Positions 1,840-11,942 of a stretch of DNA of 32,000 nt are shown here, one piece after another. The notes under the pieces were generated by a model. It worked only from the letters and a program-made list of their open reading frames with translations. It was not told the origin of the DNA and searched no databases. The position numbers and the translations under genes were made by a program. The stretch comes from an uncultured archaeon. GTDB taxonomy: Archaea > Asgardarchaeota > Jordiarchaeia > Jordiarchaeales > Jordiarchaeaceae. The stretch is from positions 4,094 through 36,093 of the forward strand of contig CAZECW010000098.1 in NCBI GenBank assembly GCA_964510585.1, in the 5' to 3' direction. The stretch's first letter is position 1. Each line of letters begins with the position of its first letter.

Positions 1840-2106
1840 TCCTCACAACATATTGATAAGAAACACTTAGTTGGCCTAATAGATTTGGCAGTTTTGGCTT
1901 CTATGTTAGGCACCACTTTCATGTAGCAACATTTAAACAACTCCCTTTTTAGATCAACTCGAATATTCGACCGTCGAAGACTAACTTTGTATGCCTTATT
2001 TCAAGCATGCGTGCTTGGTTTTCGCTTATATTTAAAAGGGAATTCCAGAAAAATGTTATATTTCTTGGAGATTCTCGTTTGGGTAAAGATTTGTTGGGAT
2101 GATGAA

Positions 2107-3996
2107 ATGAGTAGACCCATATTTGCTCAGGATGCTGTTGGTACACGGGCTATTTTGTTGGGAAACGAAGCCATTGCACGTGGAGCTCTGGAGGCAGGAG
2201 TAAGAGTGGCAGCGGGATACCCAGGAACCCCTGCAACAGAAATAATTGAGACACTTGCCGAGATATCCCGATTTTACCCCGAAATTTATGTGGAGTGGTC
2301 TATAAACGAGAAGGTTGGTTTTGAAACTGCCTTCGCTGCTTCCATGTGTGGAGTAAGATCAATGGCCTGTATGAAGCATGTTGGTCTCAATGTCGCCTTG
2401 GACAGTTTTGTAACCGCGTGTTATGCGGGAGCTAAAGGCGGCTTTGTACTAGTTAGTGCTGATGACCCCGACTGCCACTCAAGCCAGAATGAGCAGGATA
2501 ATCGTCAACTGGCTAAATTGGCTTTTTGCCCTGTGCTCGAACCTGCGAGTGCAAATGAGGCAAAAGAAATGACCAAATATGCATTCGACTTTTCGGAACA
2601 GTACAGAACTCTAGTTATGCTACGCACCACCACGAGATTAAGCCACTCCCAACAGGACGTGACACTGGGAGAAATACCGCCAATAAAGAAGAGGGGGAAA
2701 TTTGACCATGATAAAAGCCGGTGGACATTTCTACCTGTAAATGCGAGAAAACGGAGGAGACTGATGCTTGAACGGATGGAGAAAATAAAAGAAGCGGTTG
2801 AAACTAACCCCTTCAACAAAACGGCGATAAATGAAAAGTCTGTAGTTGGTATAATAGCCTCTGGACTTGCTCACACTTATGTAGTTGAATGTTTGGAGAA
2901 AAACAACCTGGCGGATAAGGTTTCATACTTGAAGCTGGCCACAACATTCCCCCCACCCAAAAAGCTCCTCAGTGAATTCATCTCAAACCTAAACCGAGTA
3001 CTGATAGTGGAGGAACTTGAACCATTCGTTGAAGAATATGTTAACATTTATGCTAAAGAGGCCAACCCATCTCTGCAAATAATTGGCAAGGGACTCATCC
3101 CTCAATATGGGGAACTGACGCCAGAAACAGTCACTGAAGCAATAAACACTTTTCTGGAGAAAAAGAAGCCTAAACCAAAATCTGAACAAAAAGCCAAGAG
3201 CCAACAAGATATTAAAGCTCCACCCCGCCCCCCAGTACTCTGTCCGGGATGCCCACACCGAGCCTTCTTCTACGCACTAAAGTTGGCGGAGGAAAAAAAG
3301 AAAACGAAATTCATATACAGCTCAGACATAGGCTGCTACACCCTAGGGTTTTACCCACCCTTGGAAACCATAGAGACCTGCCTGTGCATGGGTGCAAGCA
3401 TAGGTATGGCAAACGGGTTTTCCAAGGTCGGCGAGGACAACCCCATCTTCGCCATTTTGGGCGATTCAACATTTTTCCACGCCGGTATTCCTGGACTAGC
3501 CAATCTAGTCTATAACAATAGCAAAGTCATCGTCGTCATTCTCGATAATGGCACAACAGCGATGACTGGACATCAACCCCATCCAGGAACTGGCATCCGA
3601 ATAGACGGATCACCCTCCACAAAGATTCACATAGAAAAAATCGCGGAAGGATGTGGGGTGAAGTACATCAGAGTAATAGATCCCTACGATGTGCAAAACA
3701 CGGTAAACATGATTTTGGAAGCCATTTCATTTAACGATGGCCCCGCCCTCATCATCTCTCGCAGAGAATGCGGCTTACTGAGTCAGCGCAGGAAGAAAGA
3801 AATCAAAGAAAAAGTGGTGGTCTACAGGATTGATAATAATAAGTGCACCAAGTGTCGACTGTGCGTTTCCACTCTAGGGTGCCCAGCTTTCCTCATAGAA
3901 GGCGACGAAATCCAGATTCTACCAGACCTTTGTACCGGATGCAAAGTTTGCGAAAAAATTTGCCCAGAGGGTGCCATAGTTGAAAAAGCAGAATAA
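2107..3996 (+). CDS. iorA: Indolepyruvate (2-oxoacid):ferredoxin oxidoreductase alpha subunit
   Basis: LLGNEAIARGALEAG, AGYPGTPATEI, EWSINEKV, MKHVGLNVA, DDPDCHSSQNEQD, LCPGCPHR, DIGCYTLG, TPP motif GDSTFFH...LDNGTTAMTGHQ, and C-terminal ferredoxin CTKCRLC...CP / CTGCKVC...CP. ATG 2107 is preferred over the track start at 1987. Confidence 0.95.
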   Translation: MSRPIFAQDAVGTRAILLGNEAIARGALEAGVRVAAGYPGTPATEIIETLAEISRFYPEIYVEWSINEKVGFETAFAASMCGVRSMACMKHVGLNVALDSFVTACYAGAKGGFVLVSADDPDCHSSQNEQDNRQLAKLAFCPVLEPASANEAKEMTKYAFDFSEQYRTLVMLRTTTRLSHSQQDVTLGEIPPIKKRGKFDHDKSRWTFLPVNARKRRRLMLERMEKIKEAVETNPFNKTAINEKSVVGIIASGLAHTYVVECLEKNNLADKVSYLKLATTFPPPKKLLSEFISNLNRVLIVEELEPFVEEYVNIYAKEANPSLQIIGKGLIPQYGELTPETVTEAINTFLEKKKPKPKSEQKAKSQQDIKAPPRPPVLCPGCPHRAFFYALKLAEEKKKTKFIYSSDIGCYTLGFYPPLETIETCLCMGASIGMANGFSKVGEDNPIFAILGDSTFFHAGIPGLANLVYNNSKVIVVILDNGTTAMTGHQPHPGTGIRIDGSPSTKIHIEKIAEGCGVKYIRVIDPYDVQNTVNMILEAISFNDGPALIISRRECGLLSQRRKKEIKEKVVVYRIDNNKCTKCRLCVSTLGCPAFLIEGDEIQILPDLCTGCKVCEKICPEGAIVEKAE

Positions 3997-4112
3997 TATC
4001 TAATCTCTATAAAAAGGATAAAACCCCTATAAGGAAGTTAGTAAAATACAGGAATTGGTTCACACCCCGACAAATTGTGGGGGATGGAAGTCTAAAAAAG
4101 GGAGATGCAATA

Positions 4113-7023: not shown

Positions 7024-8493
7024 TTGATTCAAAGAAATAAGGAGAAGAAGTTTGTTTCTAATAAGGGAGTTACTGAGAATCATTCGAGAATAGCGTTTAG
7101 AAGTGATTTGACTCCGTTTTTTGAGCCGAAAAGCATCGCAATAATTGGCGCCGTTAAAAGCCTCTGGTTTGGAGGCTTGGTTACTCTCAGTAATTTGAAA
7201 AATTTAGGATACAAGAGAAAAGTCTATCTGGTAAATCCTTCATACCCGGAGGTCGAAGGAATAAAGGTTTATCCCAATATAAAGGAAGTCCCGGACAAGG
7301 TGGATTTGGCTGTAATAATCACTTCTGCCAGGGCTGTACCGGTAATAGTCAGAGACTGTGTGGAGAAAGGTGTGAAAGGAGCGGTTATTGTAGCTGATGG
7401 TTTTGCTGAGAGAGACGAAGAGGGAGCGAAGCTTCAGCAAGAAATAGTGAACATTTCCAAGCAGACTGGGATAAGAATATTGGGACCCAACACTATTGGG
7501 GTTGTCAACCCCTATTCAGGCGTTATTACAACGCCTTACCCTCTGGGATACAAAAGTATTAGGAAAGGACACGTAGCACTGGCAGCTCAGACAGGAATTA
7601 TAGGCGCACAAGCATTTCCCTTCGAAGAACTACAGTATGGCGTCAGCAAAATATGCGATTTTAGTAACAAGTGTGACGTTAACGAGACGGATCTATTGGA
7701 ATATCTGGAAGATGATCCAAAGACCAAAGTAATTGCATTGCACATCGAAGATATTAGAGATGGAAAGCGGTTTTTAAAAGTGGCAAAAAGAGTAGTTAAA
7801 AAGAAGCCAATACTAGTATATAAGCCGGGAAGAACCAGCGAGAGCAAAAAGGCTTTAGCATCCCACACAGGATCCATTGCTGGGGATCAGAAGATATATG
7901 AGGCAGCTTTCAGGCAGGCTGGACTAATTCAGGTAAACTCTTTTTCTGAATTATTACAGATAGCTAAAGCCTTTGGATACCAGCCGCTTCCCAAAGGAAA
8001 TAGGCTGGGTATAGTCACCATCACGGGAGGCGCTGGCATTATGGCAATAGACACAGCGGTAGAGTGGGGATTAGTTTTAGCTAAATTGTCAGATGAGAGT
8101 AATGAAAAGTTGTTTAGAATTCACGCCACCATGGTTGGTAACCCCTCAGACATAGGGCCGGCAATGCCCACTCTACAGGATCCCATTACGCCTTATAAAA
8201 AAGCGATTGAGGTTTTCTATCAAGACCCCAACGTTGACTGTTTGCTAATTACATTTTATGCCTTTCCCGGAGTCACTCCAGAACTCTACGTAGATATGCT
8301 CAAGGAAGTTCGAGGCTCTGTGGAAAAGCCAGCAGCAATCTGGATTTACGGACCTAGTAATGAGAGCATCAACAAGATTTACAAAGCTCTTGAAGCTGCG
8401 GATTACCCTGCCTATCTGGATATAGATATGGCTGTCAAAGCATTAGGAGCAATGTACCAATATACCCAGATCAAATCCAAGTGGGGTACCTAA
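7024..8493 (+). CDS. acdA: Acyl-CoA synthetase (NDP-forming), alpha subunit
   Basis: FFEPKSIAIIG, CoA-binding VNP..DLAVI, GFAE, RILGPNTIG, ASHTGSIAG (phospho-His) and GGAGIMAID. No ATP-grasp beta domain. The start could be as late as TTG 7108. Confidence 0.9.
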   Translation: MIQRNKEKKFVSNKGVTENHSRIAFRSDLTPFFEPKSIAIIGAVKSLWFGGLVTLSNLKNLGYKRKVYLVNPSYPEVEGIKVYPNIKEVPDKVDLAVIITSARAVPVIVRDCVEKGVKGAVIVADGFAERDEEGAKLQQEIVNISKQTGIRILGPNTIGVVNPYSGVITTPYPLGYKSIRKGHVALAAQTGIIGAQAFPFEELQYGVSKICDFSNKCDVNETDLLEYLEDDPKTKVIALHIEDIRDGKRFLKVAKRVVKKKPILVYKPGRTSESKKALASHTGSIAGDQKIYEAAFRQAGLIQVNSFSELLQIAKAFGYQPLPKGNRLGIVTITGGAGIMAIDTAVEWGLVLAKLSDESNEKLFRIHATMVGNPSDIGPAMPTLQDPITPYKKAIEVFYQDPNVDCLLITFYAFPGVTPELYVDMLKEVRGSVEKPAAIWIYGPSNESINKIYKALEAADYPAYLDIDMAVKALGAMYQYTQIKSKWGT

Positions 8494-8695
8494 TAAAATC
8501 ATTAAAAAATGGTTCGTCTCTTTGCGATGTGGAATAGGTGTATTTAAAAATGCGAGTTACATAAAAATTCATACTGATTAGAACATTAAACCGTCGGCAA
8601 CGGTTTAGTCGGTGTTTATTTAGACTTAAAATTTATAAATGGTGACAGGGGTAAAAGGGATAGGGAAGGTCATAATGTGATTCGGTGGAGACCTA

Positions 8696-8965
8696 ATGTC
8701 TAAAGAATTTAAAGATGTTTGGGATTATTACTACACCACAAGTATGGGTAGAGAGGGAGAACAAATCATCGTAATCCATGCCACCGCACAAGCGAAAAAG
8801 CTGGCTAAGCTAGGGTTAAACGATTCAGCCAAAATTAAGAAACTCTGGCTCGACGTTATAAAACAAGTTCCCTTTTTCAGCGATAATGCGGTCAGCACAG
8901 ATTTTGAAATAAAAATTGAGGGGGATAGTGTCGAAGCAACCATTACAATAACCCAAAAAACATAA
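8696..8965 (+). CDS. Small hypothetical protein
   Basis: 89-aa ATG ORF preceded by GGTGGAG; normal composition; unknown family. Confidence 0.65.
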   Translation: MSKEFKDVWDYYYTTSMGREGEQIIVIHATAQAKKLAKLGLNDSAKIKKLWLDVIKQVPFFSDNAVSTDFEIKIEGDSVEATITITQKT

Positions 8966-9302
8966 AGAAACTTCGGCGACTCATCCTCGACACTAAGTGG
9001 TGAAGCTTAAATTGGCGGATTTTTTTGCTTTTTCCGAAGGACATTGTAATGTGAGTGCATTTTTGAATAGGTTTACATGTATTCGTCTGTGAAATGAGTG
9101 CAGAGGGCTCCCCTGAAGCCCTATTTCCAGCTAAGTTCTAAAGTAGGGGTGTTAGGACGCCTTTGCATAAAAAAATAGGAAACATCTTATCATGTTCTTT
9201 TCCCAATTGTAAAAACTTAAATAAAACTCATTTACCTAAATTATATTAAGCGGTATACAATTCCGATTCTTAGATTATCTGTAATGGTGGTGCAATGACA
9301 CC

Positions 9303-9917
9303 TTGATACATGGAATATACATAATCGAGGCCTGTAGTGGCATATGTTTAGTCTCGCGAAAGTATGGAGATGTGGAAATAGATGATGGGCTTATAAGTGG
9401 TTTCTTAACAGCATTGCAACAGTTCTCCTCAGAGTTATCTATACGGAAGGATCAACCAGCAATCCTTCGCGAAGTGGAAATGAAGAGTTATAACATAATT
9501 TATGAAAAACGGGGAGAAACCACAGTTGTAGCATGTGTTGACAGGGGGGATAACGAGAAGGTTCTCCGTGAGACTTTGGTCAAAATAGCAGACAACTTTC
9601 TTGAGAGATTCGGCAATTACCTTAAGAACTGGCGGGGCGACACTAAACTCTTTAAAGAGTTTTTGCCCTTGATTGATAAATTGACCTTGGATGGTAAGAT
9701 TGCTGAGCTTGCAGTTCCGAAACCACTCCTAAAAAAGAAAATTCCCAAGTCCATTATTAAAATGGGGGTATTTTTGGAGGAGGACGCTTTTAAAGTGGCT
9801 AATTTTTGTGATGGGACAAAATCCAAAGAAGAAATCGCTGAAGAAACTGGTTTTACTGTAGAAAAAGTAGGTGAAATATTGGAAAAACTGGAAAAAATGG
9901 GCTTGATTGAAATGTAG
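9303..9917 (+). CDS. Longin-like domain protein with C-terminal winged helix (Asgard eukaryotic-signature type)
   Basis: Longin-type beta-beta-alpha-beta3-alpha-alpha pattern (IYII..SGICL; LISGFLTALQQFSSEL; W.GD...F) followed by FCDGTKSKEEIAEETG...V.EIL.KL.KMGLI. Confidence 0.75.
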   Translation: MIHGIYIIEACSGICLVSRKYGDVEIDDGLISGFLTALQQFSSELSIRKDQPAILREVEMKSYNIIYEKRGETTVVACVDRGDNEKVLRETLVKIADNFLERFGNYLKNWRGDTKLFKEFLPLIDKLTLDGKIAELAVPKPLLKKKIPKSIIKMGVFLEEDAFKVANFCDGTKSKEEIAEETGFTVEKVGEILEKLEKMGLIEM

Positions 9918-9955
9918 CGTAGACTTCCCATCCTCGGGGAGGCCAATATTTAAGT

Positions 9956-10795
9956 CTACTCGATTTCTTCGTATCGTATGCCATAGTATATAAGGATCAG
10001 TGCAATCATAGCAAGTGCGGGCGCTAATACTATCGATAACAATGTAGACAAGTATGTTTTAATTAGCGCGGCTTGAAGCACTCTGCCCACATAGTAAATT
10101 GTGAAACCGAATCCAAGAAGGAGGGCTCTTTTTCTAATAGTTCCAATTCCCTGCCAAGCCACATAGAAGAATATCAGGGGAATAATGATTGCGTATATTG
10201 CTGCTAAAACATAGTTTAATGCTATGTAAATTATGCCACTGGGCTGGTAAAGAAACCCTACAATTATGGGAATCTGGGAACTAAAGCCAAAGTTTAGGAA
10301 GGTAATAATAGGATCCTCAAGAAAAATGAATTGTGGCACAAAGTAGTTTAACAACTCAATTTCAAAGGAGAAAAGTAGGTTTTCAGGCACTAAGAGTATG
10401 GCAAAAGCGGCGATGAATGGTAATACGGGAATTGCCCTTTGTAATGTTTTATTTTCTAGTAGAGTCAGAACCATACCTAATGTGAGCCAGCCTAAAGCTA
10501 TCCATTCCCAGAAGGAACCTAAACGCCAGAACCAAGGATTAATCAGGAAGTAGCCGAAGAGGGGATCTTTGGAAAGTAGATATACGCTTGGAACCAGATA
10601 GAAGTCGTAAATTAAGAAAAATATTCTGCCAATGGTTAGAGAAAGGAAAAACACACCTAAGCCAAGCAGGAACATGTTTTTTGTCTGTCTCCATTTAAAG
10701 AAGTAGAGATATATAAACAGCAGGAGATAAAGAGAAATGTTGATAAACCATAAACCTAAACCAAGAGAATCCAAAACATATCCTGAAGGTATCAT
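9956..10795 (-). CDS. Polytopic membrane protein (~7-8 hydrophobic segments)
   Basis: Seven to eight hydrophobic stretches counted by eye. ATG 10795 follows GGTG at 6 nt spacing (the track start is GTG 10804). Confidence 0.8.
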   Translation of the reverse strand: MIPSGYVLDSLGLGLWFINISLYLLLFIYLYFFKWRQTKNMFLLGLGVFFLSLTIGRIFFLIYDFYLVPSVYLLSKDPLFGYFLINPWFWRLGSFWEWIALGWLTLGMVLTLLENKTLQRAIPVLPFIAAFAILLVPENLLFSFEIELLNYFVPQFIFLEDPIITFLNFGFSSQIPIIVGFLYQPSGIIYIALNYVLAAIYAIIIPLIFFYVAWQGIGTIRKRALLLGFGFTIYYVGRVLQAALIKTYLSTLLSIVLAPALAMIALILIYYGIRYEEIE

Positions 10796-11123
10796 TACGA
10801 ACACCTTAATGGATCATTTTTTGATCTGTAAATTTTTCATTTTGTTGGTTAAACTCAAAAACACTAATTAAACAGTTTATATGAAAATAATTATCTCTTT
10901 TAATTTATGAAGGTTTTTATATCAAGCAAAATTGCATAACGTGAAATAAGACTCGGAGTTTTTAAAAAGGTATCATAACTGGTCAAGTGTTAAATTAGGT
11001 TTGTTTCCAGAATCACCAAAAACGGCTGAAAATCCACTCTCACTCAAAGAAAAAGGAGAGAAATAAGGAAAAATGGCTAAAACAAATTTAACGCAGTTAA
11101 TAATAAAATGAACTTTATGAGTT

Positions 11124-11942
11124 GTGGGTAAAATGAGACTGGGATACGCGTCGGGATGCTTTTTGGAAAGGCGAAAAGGTTTTGTTATTCCGCGTCCTAT
11201 TCCAGATGAGTTAAAAAATTATTCGGTTGAACTCCAAGTTGGGAGGGGATACGACTATTCCCATTTTAATAATATAGTTTCAATTCACCTTCCTTTTACG
11301 CATTATAAGGAATCAAGAGTGAAGGGCACTAAAGTTTATGAGAAATTGAGAGAGGTGAACATAGCATCACTAAATCAGGAATTCTGGGCGGAAGACCTAG
11401 CAGTCTTTAAAGAACACATCAAAGAGGCTGCTTGTAGAGGAATAAAGTATGCAGTTTTCCACTATGGTAGCTGTAATTGTGGGAGCCGACTTTTGCGTGA
11501 TGAAAAGCATAGAAAACTCCACTGGAACAGAGAAAAAGAGTTTTTGGAAGAGCTTAACCAGTTGGCTAAAAATAGTGGAATCAGGTTGCTGGCCGAAAAT
11601 CATCCCTATGGTGATGGAGTTTTTTTGAGCCACGTTAAACACATTTCTGAGATAGTTGATAACGGTTATGCAGAGATATGCTTAGATTTTCCTCACGCGT
11701 TTTATCGTTCTGTAAAATTCGGCAATGCCAACTTGGATGAGATTATAAACAAGTTCCGGAATAGCATACAAGAAATACACTTGGCGGACAATGATGGATT
11801 AAGCCATGCCCCTCTGGCACTTGATAGAGGAAGCATTGACTGGAGGAAACTGATTCCCCTTTTCAAAAGTTCCCTTTTAGTCATAATTGAGTTGAGAGAA
11901 AACCCTCTTGAATCACTAAAGAAAGCTTTGGAGGTACTATAA
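11124..11942 (+). CDS. Sugar phosphate isomerase/epimerase / AP endonuclease 2-like TIM-barrel protein
   Basis: Metal-ligand strands LLAENHP, CLDFPHA, IHLADN..H and IIELRE; SIHLPF and VFHYG. Confidence 0.82.
   Translation: MGKMRLGYASGCFLERRKGFVIPRPIPDELKNYSVELQVGRGYDYSHFNNIVSIHLPFTHYKESRVKGTKVYEKLREVNIASLNQEFWAEDLAVFKEHIKEAACRGIKYAVFHYGSCNCGSRLLRDEKHRKLHWNREKEFLEELNQLAKNSGIRLLAENHPYGDGVFLSHVKHISEIVDNGYAEICLDFPHAFYRSVKFGNANLDEIINKFRNSIQEIHLADNDGLSHAPLALDRGSIDWRKLIPLFKSSLLVIIELRENPLESLKKALEVL

Follow-up and report, generated by a model that had tools for sequence, protein, structure and literature searches.

The 32,000-nucleotide (nt) stretch of DNA analysed here (the window; positions 4,094 to 36,093 of the forward strand of contig CAZECW010000098.1, assembly GCA_964510585.1) originates from an uncultured Asgard archaeon of the Jordarchaeia. 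It contains a gene at positions 9303-9917 which raises the question whether a protein of about 200 residues unites a longin domain with the winged helix of the eukaryotic proteins NPRL2 and NPRL3, and which role such a protein might play. NPRL2 and NPRL3 form the catalytic core of GATOR1, a GTPase-activating protein (GAP) by which mTORC1 signalling is turned off, and how this machinery arose is an open question in eukaryogenesis. Both proteins consist of a longin domain and repeated winged helix-turn-helix (wHTH) domains (Levine et al. 2013, PMC3747258). According to the predicted structures the two domains of the Jordarchaeial protein are a longin domain and a winged helix of the NPRL2/NPRL3 type.

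A first-pass annotation, made from the sequence alone, had described a longin-like pattern over about 135 residues. The AlphaFold2 (AF2) model obtained with a 31-sequence alignment (mean predicted local distance difference test score, pLDDT, 87.9; predicted TM score 0.74) agrees with this, since its N-terminal ~130 residues are arranged in the longin order b-b-a-b-b-b-a-a. The longin fold of this domain was also recovered by Foldseek. A profile of the family searched against the PDB sequence set matched Bet5 (3e-5), VAMP7 (2e-4), AP2 sigma (4e-4) and Sec22b, so that both the fold order and a significant similarity to solved longins, the two features by which membership of the superfamily was judged, were found for the N-terminal domain. 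The domain is nearer to Fuzzy, Mon1, Sec22, VAMP7 and AP-sigma than to NPRL2. Searches of Pfam and NCBIfam with the single sequence yielded only sub-threshold helix-turn-helix (HTH) and faint longin matches.

The linker containing Val-Pro that had been annotated behind the longin domain was found as A-V-P-K-P at residues 138-142. It opens a conserved basic segment (residues 138-156, net charge +6) in which P141 is retained in 28 of the 31 relatives and K144 and K146 in 22 each, and DSSP assigns a strand to residues 142-143 of the AF2 model. The helical core behind it carries a C-D-G motif (residues 169-171) and is conserved mainly at G171 and I178 (28/31 relatives each), A179 (25/31) and C169 (22/31). 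The C-terminal motif proposed in the first-pass annotation is present as D162-x3-V-A-N-F-C-D-G171, I178-A179 and V189-x2-I-L193-x2-L196-x3-G-L-I202, with two of its spacers miscounted by one residue, since six rather than five residues separate G171 from I178 and nine rather than eight separate A179 from V189.

Residues 126-204 were folded separately (pLDDT 73) and compared with 48,161 PDB representatives without the Foldseek prefilter. In this comparison of models, the closest structural match of the small winged helix is the module which directly follows the longin domain in eukaryotic NPRL2/NPRL3. Yeast Npr2 (8adl_S, residues 242-305) scored 8.7 with a deviation of 1.7 over 64 residues, human NPRL2 (8fw5_B, residues 172-235) scored 8.5 with a deviation of 1.9 over 64 residues, and 3k9t, the structure of the Pfam family HTH_47, scored 8.0 with a deviation of 7.0 over 76 residues (203-433). 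Generic Lrp/AsnC and MarR regulators reached 6.3 or less (deviation about 1.6-2.2) over about 48 residues comprising the three helices only, and domains of the RRE/PqqD type (MccB, TigE, PbtF, PqqD) reached 5.3-6.3 (deviation 2.2-3.0, 51-68 residues). The module thus resembles more than the generic MarR- or PqqD-like helices which the first-pass annotation had considered as the alternative outcome. The match to NPRL2/NPRL3 is longer because the basic segment with P141, K144 and K146 belongs to the structural unit of the winged helix, and this segment falls within the match to NPRL2 residues 172-235.

The sequence profiles point in the same direction. A profile of the C-terminal module (A3) reached NPRL2 residues 194-235 (E 0.036), and the profile of a paralogous subfamily whose members have two or three winged helices (A4) placed NPRL2 first among the natural PDB proteins, with a weak E-value of 1.4e-3 over residues 172-266. 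The A4 profile also matched yeast Npr2 (E 0.07), and the same search confirmed the identity of chain 8adl_S. The A4-NPRL2 alignment and the structural match agree in register. In the profile alignment the P-x-L-K-K of the family pairs with V-P-V-F-T-K of NPRL2 (within Y-D-V-P-V-F-T-K), and the (C/I)-D-G turn together with the hydrophobic pattern of the third helix pairs with I-D-G ... L-L-Y-Y-G-V-V. The NPRL2 motif given in the first-pass annotation was verified on the NPRL2 sequence as Q-I-L-P-Y-I-D-G-F-R-H-I-Q-K-I-S ... L-L-Y-Y-G-V-V at residues ~194-235. The Pfam check it had suggested returned nothing, as neither NPR2 (PF06218) nor NPR3 (PF03666) was among the 20 Pfam matches at E<=10 for this protein. 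A phmmer search of the PDB with residues 138-204 alone as a single sequence yielded nothing useful. HTH_47 was matched below its threshold by the Jordarchaeial protein (20.3 bits, cut-off 27.1), whereas 17 of the 31 relatives gave a match to this family, with a best E-value of 5.9e-10. Both the structure comparison and the concordant register of the A3 and A4 profiles bear out the NPRL2-like combination of longin and winged helix. The protein has the domain order of NPRL2/NPRL3, with the first module of the C-lobe behind the longin domain, and the likeness of this module to NPRL2/NPRL3 is specific and extends to its conserved basic strand.

The open reading frame encodes a genuine protein. Its occurrence by chance is contradicted by 517 cluster representatives detected by phmmer among 1.8 billion (E<=1e-3) and by the recurrence of the C-terminal module in 127 of 201 sampled Asgard genomes (A3 profile, E<=1e-8), including 64 of the 86 high-quality ones, mostly in open frames of 205-220 codons. 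About 25-30 of the phmmer clusters are full-length with both domains (~200-220 residues), and most others share residues 1-128 only. Named records of the family derive from Jordarchaeia, Freyarchaeota, Sigynarchaeum and Borrarchaeum as well as from metagenome-assembled genomes labelled Hel-, Hermod-, Thor- and Hod-. The module was detected in 41 of 41 or 41 of 43 genomes of some family-level groups and in 0 of 21 or 0 of 10 of others. The identity to homologues amounts to 75-96% within Jordarchaeia/Freyarchaeota and to 37-40% in other Asgard lineages. The homologues of the former group are likewise 204 residues long and begin with M-I-H/Q-G-I-Y at the identical position, which supports the TTG start codon, as does a GGTGGTG element 10 nt upstream. 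Since the gene is preceded by an A/T-rich spacer of 337 nt and followed by a convergent gene, it is probably monocistronic with its own promoter. An Rfam scan of positions 8400-11200 gave no match. The minimal form with one winged helix is widespread in Asgard archaea, and the catalytic signatures known from the eukaryotic GAP subunits are not conserved in its family alignment.

The Jordarchaeial genome (96% complete) holds a large set of related proteins, as profile A2 gave 36 matches, nearly all of them longin-domain paralogues. The paralogue nearest to the protein (E 1.6e-44), encoded on contig C118, consists of 332 residues and joins a longin domain to a Ras/Rab-like GTPase (P-loop GDQSVGKT, NKSD motif). 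At least three further longin-GTPase fusions are located on C81 and C27 (two), and adjacent longin and GTPase genes were found on C117 and C193. In other relatives (P0018, P0028, P0041, P0046, P0052, P0055) the same longin subfamily is fused directly to Arf-, Ras-, Roc- or Rag-like GTPase domains. The small GTPases of the genome include 24 matches to the Arf model and three strong Gtr1/RagA-like proteins, the latter at C11:7869-8540, C76:24418-24963 and C62:5870-6247. A 286-residue paralogue at C76:44343-44930 carries two winged-helix repeats behind the longin domain, and the relatives P0100 and P0138 apparently carry three.

Other associations of the longin subfamily were observed as well. 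Tandem longin paralogues of 215 and 194 residues on C113, which precede a gene for a 274-residue multi-transmembrane protein, have a Cys-rich C-terminal segment in place of the winged helix. In variants of this exact family with 67-70% identity (P0010, P0013, P0014 and a copy in locus L012) a C-terminal TPR array follows the winged helix, and one Freyarchaeota chromosome carries both a plain and a TPR-fused copy. P0039 combines the longin domain with a TIR domain, and P0071 combines it with a prenyltransferase alpha-alpha toroid domain. In the ESM Atlas the N-terminal ~146-150 residues of bacterial OmpA/BON-family proteins (Cyanobacteriota, Acidobacteriota; 484-802 residues) resemble the model (TM 0.61-0.62), and these envelope proteins may contain a longin- or roadblock-like domain.

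Based on these findings we consider it reasonably probable that the protein is a small cytoplasmic, dimeric platform for the docking of GTPases which binds a further protein through its winged helix. The longin domain, probably as a dimer, would dock one of the many Ras-superfamily GTPases of the genome. This is suggested by the repeated fusion of the same longin subfamily to small GTPases, in its own genome included, and dimers of longin and roadblock domains are established platforms for small GTPases (PMC3747258). The conserved strand ahead of the helices would complete the small sheet of the winged helix, in the layout of HTH_47, the circularly permuted winged helix of CA_C2195, for which a function as peptide- or protein-recognition module has been proposed (PMC4000134). 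By analogy with the equivalent module in the C-lobes of Npr2/Npr3, which make protein-protein contacts in SEACIT/GATOR1 (PMC9646525), the acidic winged helix may bind protein rather than DNA.

Several observations weigh against this proposal. The role of a GTPase-binding platform or adaptor, although the most likely one, is drawn from domain association, and no GTPase gene lies beside the gene in the window or in the related loci. The match of this subfamily's own profile to NPRL2 is marginal (E 0.036, rank ~33), and many DNA-binding wHTH regulators come up at similar E-values in searches with the single sequence as well as with profiles. Furthermore, judged by column conservation among the 31 relatives, no arginine finger is conserved in the family alignment, the best conserved arginines being R19 (65%) and R89 (61%). 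The alignment also lacks the GP motif reported for longins of the GAP type (PMC12290439), since G13 ahead of the second strand is kept in 30 of the 31 relatives and is followed by I, M, V or N instead of proline. Because no arginine finger is conserved, a role as scaffold, adaptor or platform for guanine nucleotide exchange factors (GEFs) appears likelier than that of a catalytic GAP in the manner of NPRL2, and from its sequence a GAP activity of the Asgard protein would be unsupported. The homodimer prediction (score 0.32, mark 0.42) counts neither for nor against dimerisation.

The neighbouring genes in the window are predicted to encode an ADP-forming acyl-CoA synthetase-like protein, an orphan of 89 residues, a multi-transmembrane protein of 282 residues and a xylose-isomerase-like TIM barrel, a context conserved only within Jordarchaeia/Freyarchaeota. 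The convergent gene of the multi-transmembrane protein, which has no Pfam family, lies 38 nt downstream, and convergence with a gene for a protein of ~280 residues of this kind was found in all Jordarchaeia/Freyarchaeota loci examined. Neither a second copy nor a detectable relative of it was identified in its own genome, and the 274-residue membrane protein on C113 shares no similarity with it. The small upstream open reading frames of the Jordarchaeial and Lokiarchaeal loci are mutually unrelated, and two 203-residue neighbours in the Lokiarchaeal locus L002 are not paralogues. In 80 loci of other Asgard species, the surroundings of the family member up to a distance of 3 kb contain rtcB in 60 cases and the gene of Archease in 62. 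The member is either upstream of rtcB in the same orientation, flanked by rtcB and the archease gene, or head-to-head with rtcB.

A more far-reaching reading would join the structural likeness and this adjacency: the single-copy protein of ~200 residues, which occurs in the majority of the Asgard lineages sampled, would represent the minimal ancestral NPRL2/NPRL3 core, from which the eukaryotic pair arose by added winged-helix repeats, it would already be a dimeric GAP or GEF of Rag/Arf-like GTPases, and the proximity to rtcB and archease, which persists in most lineages outside the Jordarchaeia, might mark a link to RNA ligation. We regard this combination as doubtful, and the first-pass annotation, which saw a compact precursor of GATOR1/DENN-type regulators, overstated what can be inferred.

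A function as transcription factor, with the winged helix binding DNA and the longin domain acting as modulating sensor or partner-binding domain, seems unlikely. It could be indicated by sub-threshold Pfam matches to TrmB, HTH_24, Crp and MarR-type HTH families, by profile matches in the PDB to ZitR/MarR, LrpA and TFE (E 1e-3 to 1e-2), by the strongly basic segment ahead of the helices and by the head-to-head orientation with rtcB in some lineages, which is typical of local regulators. However, the helical core itself is acidic with a net charge of -7 (family mean -2.8), its third helix retains only the hydrophobic core positions without conserved basic or polar residues, and both HTH_47 and the Npr2/Npr3 C-lobes have been connected with the binding of peptides or proteins, as cited above. 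Neither of the features that would assign the protein to MarR, Lrp/AsnC or TrmB, an above-threshold hidden Markov model score and a basic or polar recognition helix, was found.

It is less probable still that the protein represents a catalytic subunit of a proto-GATOR1, a homo- or heterodimeric GAP whose arginine finger would enter a Rag/Gtr-like GTPase in the manner of NPRL2 Arg78 and Npr2 Arg84. The domain order and post-longin module shared with NPRL2/NPRL3, the three Gtr1/RagA-like GTPases of the genome and the longins with GP motif and arginine finger reported in other Asgard archaea (PMC12290439) are consistent with it, but neither an arginine finger nor the GP motif is conserved in the family alignment. 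The Pfam model of IML1 (DEPDC5) found no match in the genome, nor did it in any of the control genomes.

A regulator or adaptor of the GTP-dependent RNA ligase RtcB and its activator Archease, acting in tRNA splicing or RNA repair instead of on small GTPases, is equally improbable despite the frequent adjacency in three arrangements, since the adjacency lies inside a longer conserved housekeeping block (CutA1, nucleotidyltransferase, CarS) and may be inherited synteny, and since it is absent from the loci of Jordarchaeia/Freyarchaeota, Borrarchaeum and Helarchaeota. In the Jordarchaeial genome rtcB (C58) and the archease gene (C72) lie on contigs other than that of the gene, and to our knowledge longin domains have not been linked biochemically to RtcB.

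Table 1. Positions of the gene, its domains and related loci (window numbering unless a locus is given).
Feature	Position	Strand	Remarks
Complete gene, longin + winged helix, 204 residues	9303..9917	+	TTG start, TAG stop at 9915-9917 (open reading frame listing, translation)
Longin domain, residues 1-130	9303..9692	+	b1 2-9, b2 15-20, a1 28-45, b3-b5 57-80, a2 85-108, a3 115-128
Conserved basic segment A-V-P-K-P-L-L-K-K-K-I-P-K..., residues 138-156	9714..9770	+	Predicted N-terminal strand of the winged helix
Three-helix winged-helix core and terminal strand, residues 157-204	9771..9914	+	AF2 models: helices 160-166, 175-182, 186-198; strand 202-203
GGTGGTG, possible Shine-Dalgarno-like element	9286..9292	+	5' of TTG, read from the sequence
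Convergent gene, 282-residue multi-transmembrane protein	9956-10804	-	
Longin-GTPase fusion, 332 residues	L003:1148-2146	-	Contig C118
Longin with two winged-helix repeats, 286 residues	L004:1089-1949	-	Contig C76
Tandem longin paralogues, 215 and 194 residues	L005:1015-1662 and 2061-2645	+	Contig C113
TPR-fused copy	L012:2983-4197		
Example loci adjacent to rtcB/archease	L016:548-3579, L018:1315-4204, L023:244-3138, L026:2992-5891, L027:822-3738, L002:3359-7165		

The pairing of the two domains, which the first-pass annotation had considered potentially novel, has already been described in Asgard archaea. Liu et al. (2020/2021) report "NPRL2-like" proteins with a longin and a C-terminal domain together with many other NPRL2-like longin fusions, and the asCOG label "NPRL2-like longin domain" has been used for Lokiarchaeum ossiferum (PMC9834061). 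The Jordarchaeial gene is a further example of this layout, and no new question is opened by it. The new contributions are the quantitative demonstration that the post-longin module is NPRL2/NPRL3-like, the spread of the form with one winged helix and the lack of conserved catalytic signatures in its family alignment. As a soluble-looking, single-copy, Asgard-wide protein it would be convenient for structure determination and for questions concerning the partner of the module.

The comparable bacterial systems are built from separate genes. The roadblock protein MglB and the actinobacterial conservons, in which a roadblock protein (CvnB), a DUF742 wHTH protein (CvnC) and a GTPase (CvnD) are encoded in one operon with a sensor kinase, have a roadblock topology, whereas the Asgard protein contains a longin domain and is not part of a GTPase operon. 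In CA_C2195 (PDB 3k9t), HTH_47 (PF16221) is fused to a bacterial metallopeptidase-like enzyme, in contrast to the longin domain in the Asgard protein. Among eukaryotic longin proteins, the GEF subunits (Fuzzy/Inturned of CPLANE, Mon1-Ccz1, TRAPPC1/Bet5) and the longin SNAREs (Sec22b, VAMP7) carry SNARE motifs or multiple longin repeats, neither of which occurs in the Asgard protein, and none has an NPRL2-type winged helix directly behind a single longin domain. The GTPase, TIR, TPR and prenyltransferase fusions found here match the description of the Asgard NPRL2-like proteins by Liu et al.; the present family, likened to theirs by architecture, is broader in its distribution over the sampled genomes. 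Compared with NPRL2/NPRL3 (yeast Npr2/Npr3; GATOR1/SEACIT), which comprise 380-1146 residues and a C-lobe of multiple repeats, the Asgard protein shares 12-19% identity, its longin domain is not specifically NPRL2-like and its chain ends at residue 204 after a single winged helix. The domain order and the post-longin module are the same in both. Hardly any natural protein smaller than this one would combine a longin domain with the NPRL2/3-type module.
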